From: an uncultured Candidatus Binatia bacterium
Lineage (GTDB): Bacteria; Desulfobacterota; Binatia; Bin18
Direction: 5' to 3'
DNA: 64,000 bases
Assembly (NCBI GenBank): GCA_965220195.1
Contig: CBDCPK010000005.1
Coordinates: 1,347,704 to 1,411,703 of the forward strand
Position numbers and translations under genes: made by a program
In this document: positions 2,191-24,632 of the stretch, piece after piece
Layout: the number at the start of each line of letters is the position of its first letter
Numbering within the stretch: position 1 is the first letter of the stretch
Notes under the pieces: model-generated
Database searches by the model: none
Seen by the model: the letters and a program-made list of their open reading frames with translations, nothing else
Told to the model about the DNA's origin: nothing

Positions 2191-3873
2191 CTACGCGCTG
2201 CGCAGCACCTGCCCGGCAAACGCGCCGGTATGGTCGAGCCCGTCCATAAAGACCTGGCCGTTGACCAGGGTGTACTCATAGCCCGCGGATTTTTGAATAT
2301 AGCGCCCGCTTCCGGCGGGGAAATCGTACACAAAGGTCGGCGGCGGTAGCCGCAAGTTGTCATAATCAATGACGTTCACATCGGCGTAGGCGCCTTCGCG
2401 CAGTACGCCCCGGTCATGAATGCCGAACAGTTGGGCCGGTTCCGCGGTCAACATATGAATGGCCTGTTCGAGCGCAAAGTGCTCGCGTTCCTTGACCCAA
2501 TACTTCAGAAAATAGGTCGGCAGGCTGGAATCCATGATCTGCCCGCAGTGGGCGCCGGAGTCGCCCAGGCCAATGACGACCTGCGGATGATCCAGCATGT
2601 GCTGCACGGCTTCAAACTGCGGGTTGAGGAAGGGATAGTTGAACAGCGTCTCGCCATTATTGTCGAGAGACAAGGTAATAAAGGCTTCGCCCGGACTCAC
2701 TCCAAGGCGGTCGGCATGGGTCTGGAGACTGTCCGGTGCCCCCAGGTCATAGCGCACTTCACCCTTGGGCAGGACAAAGATCTGACTGAAATCAATCGGC
2801 GGCGGATCGTCCTTGGCTTCCTGTACCATTCGCGCCTGATAGGCCGGGTCACGCAGTTTGGCGACTTTGTCGGCCAGGCTCAGGCCGCGCAGGGCTCGCC
2901 ACGCCGGAGCCCGGTCAAAAGGCGTCCGATTGACAAAGCCGAACAGCACGCCAATGCCCCGCGTGGTGGACTGGGCAAAGACTTTAGCACCGCGCCTGGC
3001 GCTGGCGTTGATCTGGTCCAGCATGGACGCATACGCCGTCGGATGCGGGCGGCTCTGGGCCAGGCCAAAAGTCACGGGTCGGCCGGTGGCCAAGCTGACT
3101 TCCGTCATCCAGTGCACCTCGCGTTGCAGGTCTGCCTGACTGCCGCTGTCGATACCCGGCGCGGCCTCAACCACGCCGCGTTGCAGCTCGCCCAACGCGC
3201 TGGTAATGCCCATCAACTCGTCAAATTCGGCAAACGTACCGGGAACGGGCTGCCCCTCCGGCGTGCGATGGAGAATGGTCCGCGAGGTAGAGAATCCGAG
3301 CGCCCCGCCTGCAATGGCTTCGGCGACAATATCACGCATCTTGCCAATGGCCTCGGGGTTGGCGGGTTTGTTTTCCAGGCTTTCCTCACCCATGGCCCAA
3401 TAGCGAACCGCGCAGTGACCAACCATACCGCCGACGTTGACCCCTTTGGGAGCCGTATCGAGCGCCTTGAGATATTCCCCGTAGGTTTCCCATTTCCAGG
3501 GCATGCCTTCGGTAATGCTCGCCGCGGGAATATCTTCCACCGATTCCATTAAGTGAGCCAGATAGTCCCGGTCTTGCGGACGGCACGGGGCAAACGTCAC
3601 GCCGCAATTGCCCATGACAACCGAGGTCACGCCGTGCCAGCACGAGGAGGAGACCGCGGGGTCCCACCAGATCTGGGCGTCCAGGTGGGTATGAATGTCA
3701 ACAAAACCGGGGGTGACGAGCTTGCCCTCGGCATTGATGGTCCGTTTGGCCGCACCGGTCACCGTACCGATTTCGGCGACTCGGTCGCCCTGGATGGCAA
3801 CATCCGCGCGTCGTTGCTGACTGCCGGTACCGTCAATGACGGTCCCGTTTTTGATGACGATATCGTAGGCCAT
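2191..3873 (-). CDS. N-acyl-D-amino-acid deacylase (D-aminoacylase, amidohydrolase superfamily)
   Basis: MAYDIVIKNGTVIDGTG...GFVDIHTHLD carries the metal-binding HxH. The 560-aa length and overall similarity match D-aminoacylases. Confidence 0.8.
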   Translation of the reverse strand: MAYDIVIKNGTVIDGTGSQQRRADVAIQGDRVAEIGTVTGAAKRTINAEGKLVTPGFVDIHTHLDAQIWWDPAVSSSCWHGVTSVVMGNCGVTFAPCRPQDRDYLAHLMESVEDIPAASITEGMPWKWETYGEYLKALDTAPKGVNVGGMVGHCAVRYWAMGEESLENKPANPEAIGKMRDIVAEAIAGGALGFSTSRTILHRTPEGQPVPGTFAEFDELMGITSALGELQRGVVEAAPGIDSGSQADLQREVHWMTEVSLATGRPVTFGLAQSRPHPTAYASMLDQINASARRGAKVFAQSTTRGIGVLFGFVNRTPFDRAPAWRALRGLSLADKVAKLRDPAYQARMVQEAKDDPPPIDFSQIFVLPKGEVRYDLGAPDSLQTHADRLGVSPGEAFITLSLDNNGETLFNYPFLNPQFEAVQHMLDHPQVVIGLGDSGAHCGQIMDSSLPTYFLKYWVKEREHFALEQAIHMLTAEPAQLFGIHDRGVLREGAYADVNVIDYDNLRLPPPTFVYDFPAGSGRYIQKSAGYEYTLVNGQVFMDGLDHTGAFAGQVLRSA

Positions 3874-4259
3874 GGCTCCTCCTTGTGTGGCTCAGTGCGT
3901 TTCTCTAACCAGTCCTGTCCATGTTTCAGCGCTCCACTTTGCGCAATTCGGGGCTTCGTGTCAATTCGACCCTAAAGCGCTCCGCCTCATGGGGTGGGCT
4001 TCCACTGGCTCAGGATTGGTTTCCATTGCCGGCGGGAGGAAAGAACAGTTCGACGCGGATCGGAGAAGGGAAAAGAGGGGATGCAACGAGTTTTCATGCT
4101 GAGCACGTTTTGTATACTGGGGTCAGCCAGTGTGATAACAGACAACATTCTCAGACGGCAGACCAATATAACGAGGAGAATGTATTGGACTCGTCTCCCC
4201 TATTACGCCCCTCAGACCGTAGGAGTTTGATCGCCAACAGAGTACGGAGGTAAAAAATC

Positions 4260-4541
4260 ATGCCAAACGTGTCTCTGGACATTCCTGAAGATTTACTCGT
4301 TACTCTTCGCGAGCAGCCGGCCGAACTGTCCCAAGAGATACGGCTGGTTGCGGCTGTCTATTATTTCGGGGAGAAGCGTCTGTCTCTGGGTCAAGCCGCC
4401 AGGTTTGCTGGCATGAACCGCCTAGACTTTCTCGACGCCCTGAGCGCGCGAGGAGTTCCGGTTTTTGACCTCTCGGTCGAAGATGCAAAGGCGGAAGTCC
4501 AGGCCGCGCAGCGAGAGTCTCAATCGAATGATTGTCAGTAA
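4260..4541 (+). CDS. UPF0175-family antitoxin-like protein
   Basis: It is 93 aa. The ...LAAVYYFGEKRLSLGQAARFAGMNRLDFLDALSARGVPVFD segment is characteristic of UPF0175 antitoxins that pair with PIN (DUF3368) toxins. A good RBS (ggaggtaaaaaatc ATG) precedes it. Confidence 0.65.
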   Translation: MPNVSLDIPEDLLVTLREQPAELSQEIRLVAAVYYFGEKRLSLGQAARFAGMNRLDFLDALSARGVPVFDLSVEDAKAEVQAAQRESQSNDCQ

Positions 4542-4608
4542 CACGACTCCTCTCATTGCGTTTGCGCGTATCGGGGAGCTTGATTTGCTGCAAAAAATTG
4601 TCGGGCAC
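4528..4608 (+). pseudogene. 5' remnant of a PIN-domain (DUF3368-type) toxin gene, about 27 codons
   Basis: An ATG overlaps the antitoxin stop in the usual toxin-antitoxin arrangement. It encodes MIVSNTTPLIAFARIGELDLLQKIVG, the canonical DUF3368 N-terminus. Similarity then stops and the frame runs directly into a lipoprotein signal peptide. Confidence 0.5.
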
Positions 4609-5688
4609 ATGCCATCCCTGTTCCTGATCAGTGCCTTGACCAGCCTGTTGTCAGGCTGTTTGGCGACCTTCGGGCCGCAGGCCATCGAACGTACCCATCC
4701 GGCTTACAACGAAGCCATTATCGCGTCTATCAATGAGCAGATGCTTCAGAACCTGGTGCGGATGCGGTACCGGGATGTCACGTTTTTTCTGGAAATAGGC
4801 AGCGTCACCACGAGTTTGTCTCTGCAAGCCAGTGCCGGGGTTGACGCCGCGCTGAATTTCGGCACCCGGGACTCCCTGAGCCCCGGCGTCGGCCTTGGCT
4901 ATGCCGACAACCCGACCATCTCCTATACACCGTTACAGGGAGAAAACCTGCTCAAGAGCCTGCTCAGCCCCCTCCAACTCGAAGCCATTCTGGTGCTGAC
5001 CCAATCCGGGTGGAAGATCGACCGGGTGTTCGGCTTGTGCTTTGAAAGGATCAACAACCTGTACAATGCGCCCAACGCCTCCGGGCCAACCCCGCAGCAG
5101 GAGCCGGACTATGAAGCATTCAACCACCTGCTTGAATCGCTGTCCGTTTTACAAAAGCGACAGCTCATAGAAATCGGCACAACCCACCAGCACGACTCCC
5201 CCGGTATTACCGTGAGGCTGGTCGCGGATGATGTGCAACACCAACAGGAAATCGACCGCATCTATGCGCTGCTCCAACTCGACCGGGAGGTCAAGGACTT
5301 TGATCTGAACACGGATTTCCTTGAGGTGAACCAGACGCAGTGGGCGGTTCGCACCCGCTCGATCTCCGGCCTGCTGTATTATCTCTCTCAGAATGTGGAA
5401 ACACCCGAGCAGCATCAGGTCGACGGACTGGTGACTATCACCACGTCGAAAACCGGGGGGATATTCGACTGGACGCAGACGCCAGCCGGTCGTCGCTTCA
5501 AGATCAGAACCAAGGCCGAACGGCCCGATAACGCCTATATCGCGACCTACTACCGAGGCCATTGGTTTTATATTGAAGACACTGACCTGGAATCCAAATC
5601 GACCTTTATGCTGCTGCGCCAACTGTTTGACCTGCAAGCGGGACAGACCAGAGCCCAGGGACCGACCCTGACCCTGCCCGTCAGATGA
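4609..5688 (+). CDS. Lipoprotein of unknown function
   Basis: MPSLFLISALTSLLSGC has the lipobox L-S-G-C. The rest is a soluble 340-aa domain I do not recognise. It is in frame with the PIN remnant upstream. Confidence 0.55.
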   Translation: MPSLFLISALTSLLSGCLATFGPQAIERTHPAYNEAIIASINEQMLQNLVRMRYRDVTFFLEIGSVTTSLSLQASAGVDAALNFGTRDSLSPGVGLGYADNPTISYTPLQGENLLKSLLSPLQLEAILVLTQSGWKIDRVFGLCFERINNLYNAPNASGPTPQQEPDYEAFNHLLESLSVLQKRQLIEIGTTHQHDSPGITVRLVADDVQHQQEIDRIYALLQLDREVKDFDLNTDFLEVNQTQWAVRTRSISGLLYYLSQNVETPEQHQVDGLVTITTSKTGGIFDWTQTPAGRRFKIRTKAERPDNAYIATYYRGHWFYIEDTDLESKSTFMLLRQLFDLQAGQTRAQGPTLTLPVR

Positions 5689-5944: not shown

Positions 5945-7513
5945 ATGAATTTGGTGCAGCATTTCTGGAACCAGCTTTCTCACGATGCAGACCGCGTGCT
6001 GTTTGAACATCTCGCGCCTTCGGGAGCAGTCATTTGGCGGCAAACCCGTGGCGCGTTGCTCACGGAGGCCTCGCTGTGGATGGCCGCCCTGCGCGGTGCC
6101 GGCATCCGGCCGGGTGACCGGGTTGCCCTGTCGCTGGGCAAAGCCACCGGTCTGGTCACCGCGCATTTAGCTATTCTTGGTGTCGGGGCCGGGGTGGTGC
6201 CGCTCAATCCCGCGCTGTCTGCGGTCGAGACTGAAGCCGTCCTGAAACAGGCCGAGGTCAAACTGGCGATTACGATCCCATCAACAGTCAACCGCTCGCC
6301 GGAGATTATCAATGCGGTCAACGGGCCGTGGTGGGTCGCGACCCAGGCTGAAGAGTCGGACGATGTTCCGCAGCAGACCGTAGCCTTAGCTAAAGTCCTG
6401 GCCGGTTATCAGCCCGGCGACGAACCCTATATCGGCCCGGACGACGCAGTTGCCCTACTGCTGTTCACCAGTGGAACGACCGGGCAACCCAAAGGCGTTG
6501 GGCTGACTCACCACAACATCGCTGCCAACCTGCAAGCCCTGCTGGTCGATACCTGGAAAATGAGTGCTGAGGACCGTCTGTTACACGCCCTGCCGCCGCA
6601 CCATCTGCACGGCCTGGGTCTCGGCCTGTACGGAACGTTGTACGTTGGCAACGCGGCTGTGCTGCTGGACCGCTTCGATCCTGTGGTCGTTCTGACCGCG
6701 TTGGCTCAACATCGTATTAGCGTATTTATGGGCGTTCCGACCATGTATCACCGTATGACCGAGCGTATGGCCGAGCTGGCCGGAGACCTGTCGTATGCCT
6801 CGATGCGGGTGTTTATCTCCGGCTCCGCACCGCTCTCGCCGGAGACCTTTCGGCGCTTTGAAGAACAGTCGGGTTTCCGTATTGTCGAACGTTATGGCTT
6901 GACCGAGACCGCGATCAATACGTCCAATCCTCTAGACGGTGAGCGCCGCTCCGGTACGGTTGGTCCGGCCTTGCCGGGGGTTGAGGTTGGGGTTTTCGAT
7001 CCGCACACCAAGCAGCCGCTCTCACCAGAGGAGACCGGAGAAATCTGGGTGCGTGGGCCGAATGTCTTTAGCGGCTACTGGAACAATCCGGAGGCCACCG
7101 CGGCGGCCTTCTGTGGCGACTGGTTTCGCACCGGCGATTTAGGTGTCTTATCCGCAGACAACTATCTGTCCATCAACGGTCGGATGAAGGAACTCATCAT
7201 CGTGGGCGGAACCAATGTCACGCCGGGGGAGGTTGAAGCCGTATTGGAAACCCAGGCGGGTGTACGTGAGTGTGCGGTTGCCGGTGTGCCGGATGCGGAT
7301 TTGGGCGAAAAAGTCGCGGCCTTCATCGTTCCCCAGTCTGACCGGGACGCAGCGAACCTTGAAGACCAGCTGCGCCAACGAGCCGAACAGGACCTTGCGC
7401 CGTATAAGCGTCCACGCCTGTATCGATTCCTGGCCGAAATTCCGCGTAACTCCATGGGTAAGGTCGAACGTGGCAAACTCAGGGACATGGGAAACGAAGC
7501 GTCAGAGGTCTGA
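5945..7513 (+). CDS. AMP-dependent synthetase/ligase (acyl-CoA synthetase family)
   Basis: The motifs LLFTSGTTGQPKGV (AMP-binding), YGLTET and TGDLG are present. The start is assigned to the internal ATG at 5945 (MNLVQHFW...). Confidence 0.8.
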   Translation: MNLVQHFWNQLSHDADRVLFEHLAPSGAVIWRQTRGALLTEASLWMAALRGAGIRPGDRVALSLGKATGLVTAHLAILGVGAGVVPLNPALSAVETEAVLKQAEVKLAITIPSTVNRSPEIINAVNGPWWVATQAEESDDVPQQTVALAKVLAGYQPGDEPYIGPDDAVALLLFTSGTTGQPKGVGLTHHNIAANLQALLVDTWKMSAEDRLLHALPPHHLHGLGLGLYGTLYVGNAAVLLDRFDPVVVLTALAQHRISVFMGVPTMYHRMTERMAELAGDLSYASMRVFISGSAPLSPETFRRFEEQSGFRIVERYGLTETAINTSNPLDGERRSGTVGPALPGVEVGVFDPHTKQPLSPEETGEIWVRGPNVFSGYWNNPEATAAAFCGDWFRTGDLGVLSADNYLSINGRMKELIIVGGTNVTPGEVEAVLETQAGVRECAVAGVPDADLGEKVAAFIVPQSDRDAANLEDQLRQRAEQDLAPYKRPRLYRFLAEIPRNSMGKVERGKLRDMGNEASEV

Positions 7514-18777: not shown

Positions 18778-19572
18778 ATGGGACAACTGGAAAACAAAGT
18801 CGCTCTCGTTACCGGCTCCGGGCGGGGCCAGGGGCTTGTGGCTGCGCAACGCTTTGCCTCAGAAGGGGCGAAGATCGTGATTAACGACCTTGACGCGGAG
18901 TCTGTCGAGGCTGCGGTTGCCGCCGTCAAAAACGCCGGAGGCGAAGCGGTGGGGGCCGTCGGTGATGTGTCCAAGGCTGCGGACGTGCAAGCCGTTCTGC
19001 AAACCGCCCAGGACGCCTGCGGCGGGTTTGACATCCTGTATAACAACGCCGGGATCGGCTACTCGGCGACGCAACGCTTCGGCATTGCCATGAGCGATAT
19101 CGTCAACTGTACCGAGGATGACTGGCGGCGCATCATGGGCATTAATGTCGGTGGGATTTTCCTGTTTTGTAAATACGGGATTCCCCAGCTGATCGAACGC
19201 GGAGGCGGGGTCATTATCAACACCGCCTCCATTGCGGCTCTGCGCGGAGCTCAAGACGCCCACGCCTACACGGCCAGTAAGGGCGCGATTCTGGCCCTGA
19301 CCCGAGCGATTGCGGTCACCTATGGCCCCAAAGGCATCCGCGCCAACACGCTCTGCCCCGGCGTGATCGACACCGAAATGATTCACGACACCTTAATCAG
19401 CGAGAAGAATATCAGCGATCTCCTTGCTCGGAACACCCCGCTCCAGCGCAATGGCACGCCGGAAGACGTGGCCGACGTAGCGTTATTCCTGGCGAGCGAC
19501 CAGTCTCGTTTCGTGACCGGCGAGGCGTTTGCCGTCGATGGCGGAATTATCCAGCATATTGGATTGGCCTGA
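18778..19572 (+). CDS. SDR-family oxidoreductase
   Basis: It has TGSGRGQG (the Rossmann TGxxxGxG motif), NNAG and YxxxK (YTASK). Confidence 0.8.
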   Translation: MGQLENKVALVTGSGRGQGLVAAQRFASEGAKIVINDLDAESVEAAVAAVKNAGGEAVGAVGDVSKAADVQAVLQTAQDACGGFDILYNNAGIGYSATQRFGIAMSDIVNCTEDDWRRIMGINVGGIFLFCKYGIPQLIERGGGVIINTASIAALRGAQDAHAYTASKGAILALTRAIAVTYGPKGIRANTLCPGVIDTEMIHDTLISEKNISDLLARNTPLQRNGTPEDVADVALFLASDQSRFVTGEAFAVDGGIIQHIGLA

Positions 19573-19597
19573 GCAGACCGCTCAAAAAGGGGAGCCC

Positions 19598-20545
19598 ATG
19601 GATCAGGAACAACTCGTCAAGGTATTCACGAGCGCGGTACTAGCGCGACGCTTTGAGGCGAAAATCGTCGAGCTGGCTATGGCCGGCGAACTGCCTCCAT
19701 CGCTGCACGTTGGCGCCGGCCAGGAGGTGGCGCAGATCGCTGCTATCGAAGCCCTACGACCCGACGACTACATCTTGTACGGCCATCGTGGCGTAGCGTA
19801 TATGGTCGCCCGGGGCGTGAGTCTGGCCGACATGCTGGCCGATATGGCGGGCAAGGAGGGCGCGACCAGTCGTGGCAAGGGCGGGGTGATGCACGTCGTG
19901 GATGTGCCCAAAGGTATTCTGGGTGAGAGTGGGACCTTGGGTGGCAGCTTCGTGGTCTCGGTTGGAGTGGGCATGGCGCTCAAGCGCAAGCAGCCGGACA
20001 CAGTGGTAACGTATTTCTTTGGGGATGGGACGGCGAACCGGGGCCCGTTCCACGAGGCGCTCAACTGGGCTGCGGTTCAGAAACTGCCCTGCGTCTATTT
20101 TTGTGAGAATAACGGCTTCGCGATTTCCATGCCGACCAGCCGCTCGACCGCGGTCGAGAATATCGCGGACCGGGCCGCGGGTTATAACGTCCCTGGCGTG
20201 GTGGTTGACGGGAGTGATCCGGTGGCGGTGTACGAAGTCATGGAACAGGCTGCGGCGCGGGCGCGGGCCGGCCATGGTCCGACGCTGATTGAAGCCAAAG
20301 TGACGCGGCTGCAAGGGCATTATGTCGCCGACCAGCAGGAATACCGGACCGACCGCAACGCCGTGGCGGAAAAAGACCCTCTGCCGAAGCTGCAACAGAC
20401 CCTGTGCGACCGGGACATCCTGACGCAGGCCGACGTGGACGACATACAGGCCGACGCCGACCGGCAGATTGAAGCGGCCGTAGCAGCCATGCGCGCGGCT
20501 CCGTTGCTCGCACCGGAAGTCGCATTGCAGGACGTTTATGCGTAG
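19598..20545 (+). CDS. 2-oxoacid (pyruvate/acetoin) dehydrogenase E1 component, alpha subunit (TPP-binding)
   Basis: It has the TPP motif GDGTANRGPFHEALNWAA...NNGFAIS. An RBS (aaaaggggag) lies upstream, and the E1 beta and E2 genes follow. Confidence 0.85.
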   Translation: MDQEQLVKVFTSAVLARRFEAKIVELAMAGELPPSLHVGAGQEVAQIAAIEALRPDDYILYGHRGVAYMVARGVSLADMLADMAGKEGATSRGKGGVMHVVDVPKGILGESGTLGGSFVVSVGVGMALKRKQPDTVVTYFFGDGTANRGPFHEALNWAAVQKLPCVYFCENNGFAISMPTSRSTAVENIADRAAGYNVPGVVVDGSDPVAVYEVMEQAAARARAGHGPTLIEAKVTRLQGHYVADQQEYRTDRNAVAEKDPLPKLQQTLCDRDILTQADVDDIQADADRQIEAAVAAMRAAPLLAPEVALQDVYA

Positions 20546-20580
20546 GAAGGGAATTGGGGATTAGGGGCTGGGGGTTGGGG
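20545..20580 (+). repeat. G-tract repeat (ggaagggaattggggattaggggctgggggttgggg), a potential G-quadruplex former
   Basis: Four or more runs of G3-5 are separated by 2-4 nt loops. It lies in the E1alpha-4HB intergenic region. Its inverted partner is at 20962-20991. Confidence 0.7.
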
Positions 20581-20588
20581 AGGAAGGT

Positions 20589-21023
20589 ATGGAGAAGAAC
20601 TCGAAGATCAGCGGTTTTCGTGATCTCCGGGTATGGCAGGGAGGAATGGACTTGGTGGAACAAATCTATCGGTTGACACGGGAGTTCCCCAAACATGAGA
20701 TGTATGGCTTGGCGAGCCAAATGCAGTGGGCCGCTGTTTCGGTTCCCTCAAATATCGCGGAAGGTCATACGCGTGATTCGCGGAAAGAATACCTCCGTCA
20801 TCTCTCGGTCGCTCGGGCATCTTTGGCTGAACTGCAGACACAACTGGAGATCGCTAAACGTCTCCAGTACTGCTCCTCTGAAGGCTACGCTCGTCTCCTT
20901 GACCAGTCTGACCTATTAGCCAGGCAACTCTCGGCATTACGAACTACCCTGCTCAAAGGAGCCAACCCCCAATCCCCAATCCCTAACCCCCTCAGGAGTG
21001 TTTATGCCAACACGGACCTATAG
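20589..21023 (+). CDS. Four-helix-bundle protein (TIGR02436-like)
   Basis: MEKNSKISGFRDLRVWQ...AVSVPSNIAEGHTRDSRKEYLRHLSVARASLAELQTQLEIA is a textbook member of the 4HB family. Confidence 0.8.
   Translation: MEKNSKISGFRDLRVWQGGMDLVEQIYRLTREFPKHEMYGLASQMQWAAVSVPSNIAEGHTRDSRKEYLRHLSVARASLAELQTQLEIAKRLQYCSSEGYARLLDQSDLLARQLSALRTTLLKGANPQSPIPNPLRSVYANTDL
20962..20991 (+). repeat. C-tract repeat (ccaacccccaatccccaatccctaaccccc), the inverted partner of the 20545-20580 G-tract
   Basis: Its reverse complement is gggggttagggattggggattgggggttgg, which is similar to the upstream copy. It encodes NPQSPIPNP at the 4HB C-terminus. Confidence 0.7.
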
Positions 21024-21975
21024 TCAGGCGATTAATGATGCGCTTGCCGAAGAAATGCGGCGCGATGAAAACGTGATTCTGTACGGTCAGGACGTTGCGG
21101 TCTGGGGTGGGATTTTCAAAGTCACCGACGGGCTGCTTGAAAAGTTCGGTCCGGATCGCGTGTTCGATACGCCGATCTCCGAGAGTGTGATGGTCGGCGC
21201 CGGTGTGGGCGCGGCCTCGATGGGCCTGCGGCCGGTGGTGGAACTCCAGTTTGCCGACTTCGTCATCACCGCGGGTGATGAAATTTTCTTTAAGGCCGGT
21301 ATGTGGCGCTATATGCACGGTGGGGCGCATACGATTCCGCTGGTGGTGCGCGCTCCCTCGGGCGGCTCGGGCTTTGGACCCGAGCATTCAGCCTGTCCCG
21401 AAGCCTTTATCATGCACGCGCCCGGCCTGCTGTGCGCCGTGCCCTCAACGCCGGCAGACGCCAAGGCTCTGCTCAAGCAGGCGATTCGACTGGATAACCC
21501 GGTCATCTATTTTGAGCATAAACTACTGTATCAAATGCGGGGCGAGGTACCGGACGGAGAGGTGCTGACTCCCTTTGGCAAAGCAGTCGTCCGACGCGAG
21601 GGCGAGGCCGTGACGATTGTGGCCTGGCAGGACATGTTGCGCCGTTCGCTCGCAGCCGCGGAGCGACTGAGCCAGGAAGGCATCGAGGTAGAGATCGTCG
21701 ATCCGCGTACCCTGAATCCGTTTGACCGCGAAACCATTATCGAGTCGGTCAAAAAGACCGGAGCCTGTATTGTGGTGGAAGAGGCCTATCGTACACTTGG
21801 GGTTGGGGCGGAGATCGGGGCGCTGCTCCTGGAAGAGGTCCTCCCCTATCTGGACAAACCCTTCAAGCGCTTGGCTATTCCCGATGTGCCGATTCCGACC
21901 AGCCAGCATCTGGTCGATGCTATCGTTCCTTCGGCAGACGATATTTATCGGGCGGTCAAAGAACTCGCTGACTGA
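21004..21975 (+). CDS. 2-oxoacid dehydrogenase E1 component, beta subunit (transketolase-like)
   Basis: MPTRTYSQAINDALAEEM...VILYGQDV...LQFADF is the E1-beta pyrimidine-binding domain. An RBS (aggag) lies 5 nt before ATG 21004. Confidence 0.85.
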   Translation: MPTRTYSQAINDALAEEMRRDENVILYGQDVAVWGGIFKVTDGLLEKFGPDRVFDTPISESVMVGAGVGAASMGLRPVVELQFADFVITAGDEIFFKAGMWRYMHGGAHTIPLVVRAPSGGSGFGPEHSACPEAFIMHAPGLLCAVPSTPADAKALLKQAIRLDNPVIYFEHKLLYQMRGEVPDGEVLTPFGKAVVRREGEAVTIVAWQDMLRRSLAAAERLSQEGIEVEIVDPRTLNPFDRETIIESVKKTGACIVVEEAYRTLGVGAEIGALLLEEVLPYLDKPFKRLAIPDVPIPTSQHLVDAIVPSADDIYRAVKELAD

Positions 21976-22003
21976 GGCTGGTGTGCGAAATACCAAAGTC
22001 GTG

Positions 22004-23650
22004 ATGCCCAAACTCGGCCAGGCCATGACCGAGGGAGTGGTCGTGCGATGGCATCGCAAAAACGGCGGGCGCGTCACTGCCGGCGAGCTGCTCGTCACGG
22101 TGGAGACGGACAAGGCCACATATGATCTTGAGGCAACCGCGAGTGGGACGCTCCACATTGTGGTTCAAGAAGGCGAAGAGGTCCCGATTCATACCGTCAT
22201 TGGCGAGATTGGTGACGCGCCAGTCCAGGCGGATACCACCACCGCTCTGCCACCTGCCGAACCGGTCGTCCAACAGCGAATAGCGTCACGCCCAAGGCGC
22301 GTCCTCGCCTCACCTAAAGCTAAACGACTGGCCGCTGAACGCGGCATTGATCTTTCAACCCTGACGCCGTCATCTGCGGATGGGGTGATTTCCGCGGCTG
22401 ATGTAGAGCAGGCCGCGGAGAACGCAGTTGCCCAGCAGCAGTCTGCGACGGCCACTCGACCTGGTTCCGCTCCAACCCGGACCGAGCGCGAACGCCGCCC
22501 TCTGACCGGCATTCGGAAGGCCTCCGCCCGCCGGGTCCAGGCCGCCTGGCAGACCATTCCGCATATCGTCCAGATGATCGAGGTCGATGCCGGCGCGCTG
22601 CAAACGGTCCGGGAACGACTCAAAGCGGATATCTCCGGGCTGACGCTCAACGACCTGATTTTACACGCGGCGGCGCGGGTGCTGGCCGGACTGCCCGACC
22701 TCAACGCGACGGTCGAAAACGAAGAGCTTATTCTCTATGACGGGGTTGATATCGGCTTTGCCGTTGACTCGCCGCGCGGTCTGCTGGTCCCGGTTATCCG
22801 CGGGGCGGACGGTCTGTCTATAGCACAGCTTGCGAAGGACAGGCAGCGACTGGTTGAAGTCGCTCGGGCGGGGCAGTTGCAGCCGGCCGATATGGGTCAG
22901 GCCAGCCTGACCGTCTCGAACCTTGGCATGTTCGGCATCCGGGCCGGCACCCCGGTCATCAATCTGGGTGAACCCATCCTCGTCTTTGTGGGCGCGGTTG
23001 AAGAGCGGCCGGTCGTGCGGAATGGGCAGATTATCGCCCGTCCCATGCTGACGCTCAGCATTGCTTATGACCACCGGGTAGCGGACGGGGTAGCGGCATC
23101 CCGTTTGAGTCAGGGTCTGAAAGAGGCGCTGGAAAATCTAGGATCAGAATCCTTCTCGGAAGTCTCCAACTCCCAACCCCTAACCCCCAACCCCCAAGAA
23201 GCCCTGGACAAACGGGAAGTCCGCTCAATGTCTGCTGGCGAGCGATATGCCGTTCGGGTGCGGAGCCACGCCCATGTCTGGAGCCTTGACGAGCCGGCGA
23301 GCGACGGCGGAGAGGATACCGGCCCGGACCCGGTAACCGCTTTTCTCGGCGCTCTTCTCTCCTGCATGACGATTGCCTTCAAAGCGGCTGCCCGGCGTCG
23401 CAAGATTTCAATTGAACGGATTGAGGGACGTGCCAAAGCATCGCTGAAGGGCCAGGTGAAAGACATAACTTTAACCCTGGCTGTGTGGAGTTCGGCTTCG
23501 GAGCAAGATGCGCAGATTCTCCTCGAACGGGCCAAGCGCGGCTGTTATGTAAGCGGAATGCTGAGGCCGGATATCCACCTTACGGTGGAGTTGGTCAGGC
23601 ACGCGCCGGACGCCGCCTCTTCCCCTCGCCCCCTTGGGGGAGAGGGCTAG
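22004..23650 (+). CDS. Dihydrolipoamide acyltransferase (E2: lipoyl, peripheral subunit-binding and catalytic domains) fused in frame to a C-terminal OsmC/Ohr-like domain
   Basis: The lipoyl domain is ...VTVETDKATYDLEA. The peripheral subunit-binding domain is SPKAKRLAAERGIDLSTL. The catalytic domain ends at ...YDHRVADG...LENL. The frame then continues through a Pro/Asn linker (SNSQPLTPNPQEA, encoded by a C-tract repeat). It runs on into an OsmC-like domain (DPVTAFLGALLSCMTIAFKAAARRRKI...ERAKRGCYVSGML). Confidence 0.7.
   Translation: MPKLGQAMTEGVVVRWHRKNGGRVTAGELLVTVETDKATYDLEATASGTLHIVVQEGEEVPIHTVIGEIGDAPVQADTTTALPPAEPVVQQRIASRPRRVLASPKAKRLAAERGIDLSTLTPSSADGVISAADVEQAAENAVAQQQSATATRPGSAPTRTERERRPLTGIRKASARRVQAAWQTIPHIVQMIEVDAGALQTVRERLKADISGLTLNDLILHAAARVLAGLPDLNATVENEELILYDGVDIGFAVDSPRGLLVPVIRGADGLSIAQLAKDRQRLVEVARAGQLQPADMGQASLTVSNLGMFGIRAGTPVINLGEPILVFVGAVEERPVVRNGQIIARPMLTLSIAYDHRVADGVAASRLSQGLKEALENLGSESFSEVSNSQPLTPNPQEALDKREVRSMSAGERYAVRVRSHAHVWSLDEPASDGGEDTGPDPVTAFLGALLSCMTIAFKAAARRRKISIERIEGRAKASLKGQVKDITLTLAVWSSASEQDAQILLERAKRGCYVSGMLRPDIHLTVELVRHAPDAASSPRPLGGEG
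23172..23196 (+). repeat. C-tract repeat (cccaacccctaacccccaacccccaa)
   Basis: It belongs to the same CCCCAA/CCCTAA family as 20962-20991 and lies in the E2-OsmC linker. A G-tract partner (gggggagagggctagggtgaggggg) lies at 23636-23660 and spans the stop codon. Confidence 0.65.
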
Positions 23651-23696
23651 GGTGAGGGGGTCTCGGTAGCAACGCTATTGAATAACCCGGACCTGC

Positions 23697-24632
23697 CTAT
23701 TCATGCAGAGCGGTCTTCAGCGCCGCGGCCGCCTTTTCCAATGCCTGCCCGGCCGGCTCAACGACCTTGGCCATACCCATAAAGCCGTGGATGAGCCCCT
23801 CAAAACAAACGTATTCAACCGCTACGCCTGCCTCACGCAGCCTGGCCGCGTACGCGGCTCCCTCGTCCCGCAGGGGATCGTATTCTGCGGTGGCAATAAA
23901 GGCCGGCGGCAGGGAGCGGCATTGATCGGTCGAGGCGTACAGGGGGGAGGCCAGCGGGTTGTGTCCATCCGCTTCGCTGGCGAGATAATGGTCCCAGAAC
24001 CACCCCATCATCTCGGTTGTCAGAAAATAGCCGTCCGCATTTTCGGTGTGCGACGGCAGGTCAACCGCGTGCGCCGTGACCGGGTATAGGAGGAGTTGAT
24101 AGGCGAGAGCCGGCAGGCCGCTCTCTTGCGCCTTGAGGGTCACTGCGGCTGCCAGGTTGGCACCGGCACTTTCACCGCCCACAGCCAGTCGAGAGACATC
24201 CCCGTTCAGGGCGGCCGCGTTGAACGCGACCCACCGCGTCGCGGCGTAGCAGTCATTGACCGCTGCCGGAAATTTGTCTTCTGGCGCGAGCCGGTAGTCT
24301 GCGGAGACCACCACGCAGTTAGCAAGATTAGTCAAGGCACGACAGGATGCATCCACCGTGTTCAGACTGCCAACCACCCAGCCACCCCCGTGAAAATAGA
24401 CCAATATGGGAAACGGGCCGTCTCCGGCCGGGGTGTAAATACGGATCGGCTGTTTGCCGGCCACGCCGGGTATCAGCCGGTCTTCGACCGTGCCGACCGG
24501 CTCGGGGTCAGCCGTTACGCCTCGCGCGGCTTCCATGGCGGTCCGCGCTTCCTGGGGCGAAAGATGATGTAGGGGTGGACCGGCGGCGGCCATTTGTTCG
24601 AGGGCTTTTGCGACCTGGGGATGGAGTGGCAT
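23697..24632 (-). CDS. Alpha/beta hydrolase (HSL-family esterase/lipase)
   Basis: It has the oxyanion-hole HGGGW motif (VYFHGGGWVVGS) and the nucleophile motif GESAGANL (GxSxG). Confidence 0.8.
   Translation of the reverse strand: MPLHPQVAKALEQMAAAGPPLHHLSPQEARTAMEAARGVTADPEPVGTVEDRLIPGVAGKQPIRIYTPAGDGPFPILVYFHGGGWVVGSLNTVDASCRALTNLANCVVVSADYRLAPEDKFPAAVNDCYAATRWVAFNAAALNGDVSRLAVGGESAGANLAAAVTLKAQESGLPALAYQLLLYPVTAHAVDLPSHTENADGYFLTTEMMGWFWDHYLASEADGHNPLASPLYASTDQCRSLPPAFIATAEYDPLRDEGAAYAARLREAGVAVEYVCFEGLIHGFMGMAKVVEPAGQALEKAAAALKTALHE

Follow-up and report, generated by a model that had tools for sequence, protein, structure and literature searches.

A four-helix-bundle gene bracketed by complementary heptamer arrays between the E1alpha and E1beta genes of a Candidatus Binatia bacterium: a candidate intervening-sequence-type cassette in an mRNA operon

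Introduction

The genes for the E1alpha and E1beta subunits of 2-oxoacid dehydrogenases are normally neighbors. An earlier note on a 64-kb stretch of DNA from a Candidatus Binatia bacterium (hereafter the window, meaning that whole stretch) drew attention to a junction at which a gene for a four-helix-bundle (4HB) protein separates the two and is flanked by G-rich repeats on one side and their reverse complement on the other. What kind of unit is this, how old is it at this position, and what might it do to the operon that carries it?

The question reaches beyond one operon. Proteins of the PF05635/TIGR02436 family are annotated as “four helix bundle protein” or “S23 ribosomal protein” in many bacterial genomes and, to our knowledge, have no known function; we likewise know of no activity for the stand-alone 4HB proteins. 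Heptamer repeat arrays have been known in bacteria since 1990 (STRR) and have more recently been read as G-quadruplex (G4) elements, with no function attached to them. The locus described here offers these two unexplained features, the protein family and the arrays, a common and testable explanation.

Results

Gene layout at the junction

The host operon has the order SDR-E1alpha-E1beta-E2/OsmC and carries the cassette in sense orientation (Table 1). The E1alpha gene, likewise 315 aa long in the orthologous loci, ends with a TAG stop codon at 20543-20545, 2 nt 5' of the left arm. The 4HB reading frame fills the spacer and overlaps the start of E1beta by 20 nt. Its Shine-Dalgarno sequence is placed 5 nt before the ATG and overlaps the inner end of the left arm. 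The E1beta Shine-Dalgarno sequence is kept across all cassette-bearing loci as well as the decayed ones described below, with CTCAGGAG followed by ATG found in the window and in L002, L004, L006, L007, and L009.

Promoter and terminator scans of the operon revealed no promoter-like or terminator-like site in the cassette, an Rfam scan gave no match in the cassette and no rRNA match at 19500-24000, and neither a second 4HB gene nor a second cassette copy occurs within the 64-kb window. The element comprises a 4HB gene that has a Shine-Dalgarno sequence of its own and no promoter, together with the two inverted arrays, each of about four heptamers, that enclose it.

Table 1. Features of the E1alpha-E1beta junction and the third heptamer array, in window coordinates
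Feature	Position	Strand	Basis and remarks
E1alpha, 2-oxoacid dehydrogenase, 315 aa	19598..20545	+	PF00676 E1_dh, E=8e-70; upstream neighbor
Left (5') arm, G-rich tandem heptamers (GGGAATT, GGGGATT, AGGGGCT, GGGGGTT, GGGG), 5 G-tracts	20548..20580	+	Inverted-repeat search, TRF, G4Hunter, fold
Shine-Dalgarno GGAGG for the 4HB ORF	20579..20583	+	Read from the sequence; kept in orthologues
Four-helix-bundle protein gene (S23p / 23S_rRNA_IVP / Avd-like), 144 aa, 435 nt	20589..21023	+	PF05635, TIGR02436, PDB 2GSC
Right (3') arm, C-rich tandem heptamers (CCAACCC, CCAATCC, CCAATCC, CTAACCC, CC)	20962..20992	+	Reverse complement of the left arm
Shine-Dalgarno AGGAG for E1beta	20994..20998	+	Directly 3' of the right arm
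E1beta, 323 aa	21004..21975	+	PF02779 E=1.4e-40, PF02780 E=1.8e-37; ATG at 21004; downstream neighbor
Third array, CCAACCC, 4.6 copies	23166..23197	+	TRF; inverted repeat; G4Hunter -2.60

Inverted heptamer arrays

Both strings that the earlier note had singled out are present, ggggattaggggctgggggttgggg at 20556-20580 and ccaacccccaatccccaatccctaaccccc at 20962-20991, and the bracketing of the gene by a G-rich array and its reverse complement was borne out. The inverted-repeat arms measure 31 nt each (20548-20578 and 20962-20992), are 81% complementary, and lie 383 nt apart in a cassette of 445 nt; the idea of a discrete cassette with inverted terminal repeats also holds. TRF assigns a period of 7 to both arms, with 3.9 copies on the left and 4.3 on the right. 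The arms exceed what chance would give: they are conserved in orthologous loci, their arrangement recurs at independent 4HB loci, and together with a third array they have the three highest G4Hunter scores of the window. In MFE and centroid RNA folds the 31-nt arms pair around the ORF, giving the enclosing stem of complementary termini that is characteristic of an intervening sequence (IVS). The fold energy of the whole element is unexceptional (z=-1.5), which counts against an RNA-stem reading, and the complementarity of just 81% between the window's own arms is a weak point of that reading.

A third array with the same unit lies in frame within the E2-OsmC fusion gene (about 21983-23650), where it encodes the inter-domain linker SNSQPLTPNPQPP; over 26 nt it is 85% complementary to the left arm 2.6 kb upstream. 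Heptamer repeats are therefore not exclusive to the cassette ends, and the linkers of orthologous E2-OsmC genes are also in-frame heptamer arrays, variable in unit and length. A G-rich hairpin flanking OsmC (23622-23663) was considered, together with the third array, as another cassette; this candidate was dropped, the two being only 70% complementary and of opposite polarity, and the hairpin is treated as a separate, terminator-like GC-rich structure.

The 4HB protein

The assignment of the 435-nt gene to the TIGR02436 family, proposed earlier from its translation, was confirmed (“four helix bundle protein”; E=9e-35, 119.2 bits against a cutoff of 24), as was membership in PF05635 23S_rRNA_IVP (E=5e-37, 126.8 bits against a cutoff of 33.8). 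The domain covers residues 11-115. The structure PDB 2GSC (XCC0516) matches residues 12-122 with E=1.8e-28 and PDB 2RLD was also matched, and homology to these two suggests that the protein adopts a four-helix-bundle fold; solved members of PF05635/TIGR02436 are pentameric four-helix bundles. The last 21 codons of the ORF (from about codon 125) are a read-through of the right arm into E1beta. This C-terminal tail is unconserved, and in L004 the ORF stops inside the right arm.

Against its orthologues the gene has a dN/dS of 0.07-0.10, which points to a functional protein under strong purifying selection. An exact-sequence look-up found no identical protein sequence on record, and PADLOC gave no match for the 4HB protein, leaving a role in anti-phage defense without support. 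Membership of the family among the HEPN RNases was considered and dropped; a survey of HEPN proteins does not mention the family (PMC3710099).

History of the junction in Binatia

A comparison of junctions in related genomes, which the earlier note had proposed as the means of telling an insertion from an ancestral gene, had an intermediate outcome, with the cassette kept by many members, though not by all, and missing from the outgroups. It occupies the same junction in the orthologous Binatia loci L001-4, L011, L010, L014, L017, L018, L165, and L170. Both arms are kept in L006, where most of the ORF has been lost; L007 is decayed further, and in L009 the right arm alone is left. The spacer is empty in L005, L008, L012, L013, L015, L016, L019, and L020. 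Several relatives, some close and some more distant, have E1alpha and E1beta side by side with 15-29 nt between them, in agreement with the view that the two genes are normally neighbors.

Among the orthologous cassettes the arms are conserved, the identity of the 4HB proteins falls to 65-69%, and dS between clades is saturated, while sister lineages with 96-98% identical E1beta have lost the cassette from an otherwise intact operon. The empty junctions of relatives and outgroups thus favor the insertion that the earlier note had suspected, although not a recent one, because the orthologous operons carry the cassette and the 4HB gene diverges alongside the host genes. The cassette appears to be old at this junction, inherited vertically in a Binatia clade and lost repeatedly, with L006, L007, and L009 as apparent decay intermediates. 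L006, with its arms and little of the ORF, shows that deletion can produce an ORF-less version in place.

The heptamer unit differs between the orthologous loci, being GGGGATT in those of the window type, GGCAACA in L010 and L170, GGGTGCT in L017, and GGGGWCN in L018. In a matrix of duplex energies for left by right arms, pairing is strongest within each unit type; the left arm of L017, for instance, reaches -51.8 with its own right arm versus -21 to -38 with the right arms of other loci. The unit thus drifts between lineages while both arms stay complementary to each other.

The same architecture at other 4HB loci

We extended the analysis to 77 non-redundant, unrelated 4HB loci from metagenomes and scored arms as matched when the left flank had at least three heptamers in common with the reverse-complemented right flank. 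Matched arms were detected in 66 of the 77 loci, with a median of 8 common heptamers versus 1 in the between-locus control; about 15% of the loci have no detectable matched arms. Period 7 dominates among the arrays, which typically have about four units per arm (modal copy number 4, in 58/114), and period-7 arrays occur at 4.1 per kb beside 4HB ends versus 0.18 per kb elsewhere. The elements have a median length of about 475 nt. At least 15 end-to-end pairs form in the MFE fold at 53 of 78 loci, versus 29 of 121 displaced controls. Gene and arrays together form one physical unit, in which the 4HB gene is enclosed by arrays complementary to each other.

Both neighbors are co-oriented with the 4HB gene in 39/53 loci by a crude longest-ORF heuristic; some cassettes are antisense to their neighbors, as in the RNR locus of Nostoc edaphicum. 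The G-rich arm lies upstream in 60 of the 66 cassettes, a polarity that a simple stem model does not account for. The most crowded locus, L096, has the order HMGL-[4HB]-ECH-[4HB]-SDR-[4HB]-thiolase, with three cassettes within 3.2 kb and three different units. A genome-specific “writer” of one unit was therefore rejected; neighboring elements do share a unit at some loci (the window, L017, and L146).

If the arms were maintained as RNA, mismatches between them should include an excess of G.U over A.C on the sense strand. We observed no such excess (46 vs 65, p=0.09), so the arms bear no RNA-specific signature, and single-stranded DNA hairpins or gene conversion between the arms could equally well preserve their complementarity at the DNA level.

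Discussion

A proposed intervening-sequence-type cassette in an mRNA operon

We put the chances at about even (roughly 50%) that the element is an IVS-type guest of an mRNA operon, its arms forming a stem of roughly 30 bp that probably serves as an RNase III-type processing site, a cleavage step that we infer from the rRNA case. The reading is based on the match in size and layout with the S23p-encoding IVS of 23S rRNA in Coxiella burnetii, Leptospira, Xanthomonas, and Brucella, whose ORFs belong to the same family (PF05635/S23p). The Coxiella IVS has 428 nt, an S23p ORF, and a 28-bp terminal stem that is cut mid-stem by RNase III (PMC4990558). Sizes are alike, the cassette of the window measuring 445 nt and its relatives a median of 475 nt versus 428-444 nt in Coxiella (PMC4990558), and so is the layout, in which the ORF is enclosed by complementary termini that form a stem of about 28-31 bp. 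The cassette, like the IVS, is presumably transcribed with its host operon, and distribution is sporadic in both. “Intervening sequence”, one of the terms that the earlier note had offered, is on these grounds the right analogy.

The two systems differ in site. Known IVS reside in rRNA genes, either 23S, where they occupy helix 9, 25, or 45, or 16S, whereas the cassette occupies the intercistronic spacer of a protein-coding operon, between E1alpha and E1beta, and none of the 4HB loci examined contains 23S motifs. The arms of the cassettes are tandem heptamer arrays with a variable unit. Furthermore, S23p is thought not to be made in Coxiella, whereas the present ORF is preceded by a good Shine-Dalgarno sequence and evolves under purifying selection.

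According to the IVS-type reading, the cassette would be transcribed within the operon mRNA, and its G-rich 5' arm and C-rich 3' arm would pair into a stem of roughly 25-30 bp enclosing the 4HB cistron. Because tandem arrays of the same unit pair in several registers, such a stem would survive the slippage of whole units. The stem would then be cut, much as RNase III excises the S23p-encoding 23S rRNA IVS after transcription without re-ligation. Such a cut would release a free 4HB mRNA with its ends still paired and divide the operon transcript in two, with E1alpha on one piece and E1beta-E2 on the other. The latter piece would retain a Shine-Dalgarno sequence supplied by the cassette just 3' of the right arm. 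Homology to the Avd pentamer, which binds RNA and the RT, leads us to presume that the 4HB protein binds nucleic acid and perhaps its own stem.

This arrangement places IVS-like geometry inside ordinary mRNA operons, with up to three cassettes per operon. It yields testable hypotheses, namely RNase III-type cleavage of the arms, segmentation of operon mRNA at the cassettes, and binding of the 4HB protein to its own stem.

Alternative explanations

The arms could instead act in DNA, as terminal inverted repeats or single-stranded hairpins recognized by a transposase in trans or by the 4HB protein, in an element that was inserted by transposition, could still move, and has the ORF-less pairs as its MITE-like derivatives. 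We regard this as unlikely, though it accommodates several observations: the termini are inverted, presence and absence are patchy among close relatives, and the same loci also contain inverted pairs without an ORF, some of which share their unit with the local 4HB cassette (L146). The family is, moreover, found across phyla and on plasmids, and a Pyrinomonadaceae 4HB protein is 70% identical to that of the window despite the different host phyla. Against it, each 4HB protein cluster was found in a single genomic context, the 4HB gene diverges in step with the host genes, and ORF-less forms can arise in place, as L006 shows. Direct repeats at the arm boundaries of 52 loci were close to a shuffled-pair control, giving no sign of target-site duplications (TSD), although their absence would fit hairpin elements of the HUH/Y1 type. 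Arm sequences are unconserved even between orthologues and differ between neighboring cassettes as well, unlike the termini that transposases bind. No transposase lies nearby; a single Y1_Tnp gene near the L001 cassette has no homologue in 1.3 Mb of loci, and a link to Y1/RAYT transposases was dropped because this gene is confined to L001. The present-day mobility that the earlier note had raised as a possibility is not supported, there being no TSD, no transposase, and no second copy in the window; a TIR transposon or MITE would be expected to have conserved multi-copy termini with a cognate transposase.

Elements of the REP/BIME type are short inverted repeats in operon spacers that can stabilize upstream mRNA segments, and REP make no TSD. 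Together with their RAYT (Y1) partners and with MITEs, they resemble the cassettes as short inverted-repeat spacer elements with numerous ORF-less derivatives. They differ in having a sequence conserved per genome and in depending on a transposase, whereas each cassette has its own unit, no transposase is associated with it, and the autonomous form encodes a 4HB protein.

A G-quadruplex switch appears still less probable. The G-rich arm would form a G4, whether on non-template DNA or, 5' of the 4HB ORF, in the mRNA; a second one would form from the right arm on the other strand, and the two would regulate transcription or translation across the junction. The left arm has a high G4 propensity, and its five G3-5 tracts give it the sequence pattern of at least four G3+ tracts with short loops, the canonical G4 motif that the earlier note had recognized. 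At +2.68 it has the top G4Hunter score of the 64-kb window, and with the third array (-2.60) and the right arm (-2.44) it makes up the top three scores there, where only 0.3% of 25-nt windows reach |1.5|. In vitro, the sequence (GGGGATT)3GGGG, built from a unit identical to that of the window, folds into a G4 of very high stability (T1/2 above 95 C in K+) according to PMC4692102, a paper that also reports a preference for four units. However, G4 formation is not the conserved property. A canonical G4 motif is present in only 17 of the 66 related cassettes, so what is conserved is the match of each arm to its partner; orthologous cassettes at the same junction have GGCAACA or GGGTGCT arms that lack four G3 runs, and the four-unit mode is as strong in arrays without GGG/CCC (33/70) as in those with it (25/44).

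It is very improbable that the 4HB protein serves the 2-oxoacid dehydrogenase complex as a dedicated accessory, for instance in its assembly or regulation, with incidental repeats around the gene. Long retention at the junction under purifying selection (dN/dS 0.07-0.10) and the gene's own Shine-Dalgarno sequence would suit such a role. The same package, however, lies between unrelated genes elsewhere, including RNR alpha/beta (Nostoc), ECH/SDR/thiolase (L096), FG-GAP genes (Pyrinomonadaceae), and cmr3/cmr2 in Pleurocapsa (PMC3936711), and the sister lineages with 96-98% identical E1beta lost the 4HB gene from operons that are otherwise intact. For annotation, this implies that 4HB genes in cas, RNR, or dehydrogenase operons should not be taken as functional partners of their neighbors.

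Avd of diversity-generating retroelements (DGRs) is a distant homologue whose pentameric four-helix-bundle fold the present protein probably shares. It binds RNA stem-loops, and a distal duplex flanks the template repeat TR in DGRs (10.1101/2023.10.23.563531). A DGR remnant, with the 4HB protein as an Avd whose reverse transcriptase, TR, and VR were lost or lie elsewhere, is scarcely credible, given that the matches to bAvd PF22296 (E=1.7e-6, 29 bits against a cut-off of 40) and NCBIfam DivGenRetAVD NF033474 (E=6e-7, 29.7 bits against 80) are weak, that the protein scores far better on the stand-alone 4HB models, and that the locus has no TR or VR and no reverse-transcriptase (RVT) domain among the genes called within 4-6 kb in any orthologous locus.

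Relation to published heptamer arrays

The arms of the cassette resemble the arrays described in Xanthomonas (GGGAATC), in Nostoc (GGGGAYT), and as cyanobacterial STRR, which share 7-nt units, about four copies, and a mostly intergenic position between co-oriented ORFs. Xanthomonas genomes contain 70-75 convergent heptamer pairs each (PMC4692102). That paper treats the heptamers as simple sequence repeats and G4 elements, and its text does not refer to S23p or 4HB genes. By comparison, the arrays studied here form the termini of a gene cassette, include many units that are poor in G, and have arm pairing, not G4 formation, as their conserved feature. We found no paper describing a link between 4HB genes and heptamer arrays in the literature searched, an absence that is no proof of novelty.

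A broader and much more tentative proposal goes beyond the IVS-type cassette. The 4HB protein and its two arms may constitute a self-contained element of a previously undescribed kind, in which an Avd-like pentamer recognizes, protects, or propagates its own hairpin without a transposase. Decay of such elements into ORF-less inverted pairs and then solo arrays could be the source of STRR and of the Xanthomonas GGGAATC arrays, and rRNA IVS would be a special case that landed in rRNA. The preference for four units, earlier credited to G4 formation, here fits an arm length of about 28-30 bp.

Organization of the cassette within the dehydrogenase operon

A four-helix-bundle (4HB) protein gene lies between the E1alpha and E1beta genes, as the earlier note had stated, and both repeat strings described there were found and extend to 31-nt arms that are 81% complementary, each a period-7 tandem array. 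The 4HB ORF clearly belongs to PF05635 (E=5e-37), scores 119 bits against TIGR02436 (cutoff 24), and matches XCC0516 (2GSC), a solved pentameric four-helix-bundle protein, with E=1.8e-28. The left, G-rich arm has GGAGG, the 4HB ORF's Shine-Dalgarno sequence, at its end, and the AGGAG Shine-Dalgarno sequence of E1beta stands directly 3' of the right, C-rich arm. The ORF runs on through the right arm to overlap E1beta by 20 nt; this read-through tail is unconserved, and in the orthologous locus L004 the ORF terminates within the right arm. Scanning the cassette for promoter-like sites, terminator-like sites and Rfam families revealed none. The G+C content of the window is 57.6%.

Positions of the operon genes, arms and repeat features in the window and in related loci (L numbers)
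Locus	Feature	Position	Strand
Window	Coding tandem repeat	661-1353	
Window	SDR gene, first in operon	about 18778-19572	+
Window	E1alpha gene	19598-20545	+
Window	Left arm	20548-20578	
Window	4HB ORF, 144 codons	20589-21023	+
Window	Right arm	20962-20992	
Window	E1beta gene	21004-21975	+
Window	E2 fused to OsmC domain	about 21983-23650	+
Window	In-frame C-rich heptamer array	23166-23197	
Window	GC-rich hairpin	23622-23663	
L001	Y1/IS200-like transposase gene	1326-2006	-
L096	Three 4HB cassettes	2390-5585	
L122	ORF-less pairs	2343-2504; 2964-3069	
L130	ORF-less pair	1514-1691	
L146	ORF-less pairs	2165-2345; 6967-7057	
L162	Apparent tRNA gene, putative	about 830-900	

A widespread architecture of 4HB genes

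The cassette in the window is an old representative of a widespread architecture. A metagenome scan with the 4HB alignment yielded 80 loci in many different contexts, chosen by similarity to the window protein (42-65% identity). With matched arms defined as at least three heptamers that the upstream flank shares with the downstream flank in reverse complement, 66 of the 77 non-redundant cassettes carried them, with a median of 8 shared heptamers versus 1 in the between-locus control. Period-7 arrays are about 22-fold enriched beside 4HB ends (4.1 versus 0.18 per kb), and at least 15 end-to-end pairs formed in the MFE folds of 53/78 elements, compared with 29/121 displaced controls. Elements have a median length of 475 nt. 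Their arrays most often contain four units (58/114) and mostly have period 7; a period of 8, 14 or 16 occurs in some. Units are diverse, including GGGGTCA, GGGTGTT, GTTGTGA, GCGAGCT, AGAGAAC, GGTTAAAA and GTGGTGA. The G-rich arm is upstream in 60/66 loci, and by a crude longest-ORF heuristic the cassette is co-oriented between co-directional genes in 39/53.

For instance, a single catabolic operon of L096 (metagenome contig Ga0299915_10000005), with genes for HMGL-like, enoyl-CoA hydratase, SDR and thiolase proteins, holds cassettes in three consecutive spacers, all with different units (GCGAGCT, GGGTCTG, GGGATTA). In Nostoc edaphicum, plasmid pNe_5 has one that separates the RNR beta gene from the RNR alpha gene; its arms are (GGGAGTA)n and (TCCCTAC)n. 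The Riemerella anatipestifer cassette uses 8-nt units. Directly after one metagenomic cassette lies an apparent tRNA gene (…GTCTAGTGGCCTAGGATATCAGGTTCTCATCCTGGAGACAGGGGTTCGA…), from which cassettes may also sit within RNA-gene operons.

Intergenic spacers near 4HB cassettes also contain inverted heptamer pairs without an ORF, with inner spacers of 30-120 nt; those of L146 share the unit GGGATCA with the local cassette. These pairs may have arisen as MITE-like copies or by deletion in place.

This cassette architecture is apparently undescribed. 4HB genes between cas genes were noted before and taken as CRISPR-associated (PMC3936711), and heptamer arrays were described as SSR or G-quadruplex (G4) elements with 4HB genes unmentioned (PMC4692102, PMC4679880). 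Within reach of the searchable literature, we found no link between 4HB genes and flanking inverted heptamer arrays.

Co-variation of the arms and the third array

Judged from their sequences, the arms at one orthologous site co-vary between lineages. Units are of GGGGATT/GGGGTTA type in the window, L004, L011, L165 and L014, GGCAACA in L010 and L170, GGGTGCT in L017, and GGGGWCN in L018, and the right arm of each cassette is reverse-complementary to the left arm of that cassette. In a left-by-right arm matrix, duplex energies are strongest inside each unit type: L010 and L170 arms reach -55 to -71 kcal/mol with each other and -21 to -34 with window-type right arms, while the L017 left arm reaches -51.8 with its own right arm versus -21 to -38 with others.

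A third array (CCAACCC x4.6, translated as SNSQPLTPNPQPP) encodes the linker from the E2 catalytic domain to the C-terminal OsmC domain; a 26-nt stretch of it is 85% complementary to the left arm. Among L001-L020, L165 and L170, the available DNA covers both domains in 19 orthologues, and in these a repeat array likewise makes up the linker; the unit varies, as does the length (45-126 nt), which is divisible by 3 in each. The array shares its unit with the cassette arms, which lie 2.2-2.6 kb upstream, in the window and in L004, L011, L165 and L017. The linker looks like an intergenic heptamer array absorbed into the gene fusion.

At and just past the E2-OsmC stop codon lies a GC-rich hairpin (CCCCTCGCCCCCTTGGGGGAGAGGGCTAGGGTGAGGGGG; G4Hunter +2.36) that has no T-run, is only 70% complementary to the third array, and may mark the operon 3' end or be a REP-like element. 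Elsewhere, a coding tandem repeat (period 108 nt, 6.4 copies, 82% matches) specifies 36-residue units (…YYKGEGVPQDYAEAAVWYRRAAEQGD…) that look like Sel1/TPR-type repeats.

G-quadruplex potential

The three highest G4Hunter scores in the 64 kb are the window's three heptamer arrays, and their unit forms very stable G4s in vitro (PMC4692102), which makes G4 formation at the window cassette physically plausible. The G4 reading of the earlier note is secondary: a canonical motif occurs in only 17/66 cassettes. Orthologous cassettes at the same E1alpha-E1beta site have non-G4 units, and the four-unit preference, put down to G4 by Rehm et al. (PMC4692102), is equal for units with GGG/CCC (25/44) and without (33/70). 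The feature conserved among these cassettes is thus not G4 formation.

Presence, loss and age at the E1alpha-E1beta junction

The earlier note had regarded family-wide conservation as the mark of an ancestral rather than inserted cassette. By its E1beta, the window falls among MAGs of Candidatus Binatia. Across 22 orthologous loci, the junction holds a full cassette in some (window, L001-L004, L011, L165, L014, L010, L170, L017, L018) and is decayed or empty in others. L006 keeps both arms and about 60 nt of ORF ends in a 154-nt spacer, L007 is further decayed (99 nt), and L009 has a sole right arm (40 nt); L005, L008, L012, L013, L015, L016, L019 and L020 are empty, with spacers of 10-29 nt. 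More distant E1 operons, from other phyla, lack a 4HB gene. The intermediates record loss by deletion, and L006, whose arms are still mostly paired in its fold, shows that an ORF-less mini-element can arise in place.

Identity to the window 4HB protein is 96% in the closest relative and 65-73% in the other clade. Since 4HB divergence roughly parallels that of the host genes and synonymous divergence (dS) between clades is saturated, the cassette is old at this site and vertically inherited; a recent insertion is unsupported. A dN/dS of 0.07-0.10 indicates that the protein is under selection. Full and empty junctions are interleaved on an E1beta neighbour-joining tree without support values; a single ancient insertion followed by numerous losses could account for the pattern, and so could repeated insertion or exchange of alleles. 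The empty L005/L008 spacer resembles that of L019 (GCGGAGT.AC), a similarity that points to persistence or exchange of an uninterrupted allele as well.

Between the window and L004, dS is 0.78 for the 4HB gene and about half as high (0.37) for the neighbouring E1beta, a hint that recombination or allele exchange affected the cassette or the gene beside it. The L003 4HB domain has an in-frame 33-nt deletion.

Possible mechanism and mobility

The closest known system is the S23p-encoding intervening sequence (IVS) of 23S rRNA, and the agreement in ORF family, size and geometry shows that the earlier note was right to call the cassette intervening-sequence-like. The Coxiella IVS is a 428-nt element whose complementary termini form a 28-bp stem, cut in its middle by RNase III (PMC4990558); the cassette arms (about 28-30 nt) agree with this stem. 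By analogy, the arms would pair within the operon transcript to create an RNase III-type processing site, and cleavage would free the 4HB cistron and split the E1alpha part of the mRNA from the part with E1beta and E2. Avd, a diversity-generating retroelement accessory protein recognised as a 4HB homologue (PMC10053308), binds RNA stem-loops (10.1101/2023.10.23.563531). This RNA-stem model leaves the G-rich-upstream polarity unexplained, and arm mismatch types gave no RNA-specific signal (46 sense G.U versus 65 A.C); their complementarity may instead be maintained by pairing at the DNA level or by gene conversion of one arm by the other.

The evidence speaks against a classical transposon, and current mobility is unsupported: there is no TSD, no conserved terminal sequence, no associated transposase and no second copy in the 64-kb window. 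In L001, a gene for a Y1/IS200-like (RAYT-like) transposase (PF01797, 30.5 bits, HUH motif) adjoins hsdM about 4 kb upstream of the cassette; the pair occupies the ABC-F gene position of the window and L002, and no homologue turned up in the other loci compared. Horizontal spread of the 4HB family at some time is suggested by its cross-phylum distribution, its occurrence on plasmids, and a Pyrinomonadaceae protein 70% identical to that of the window.
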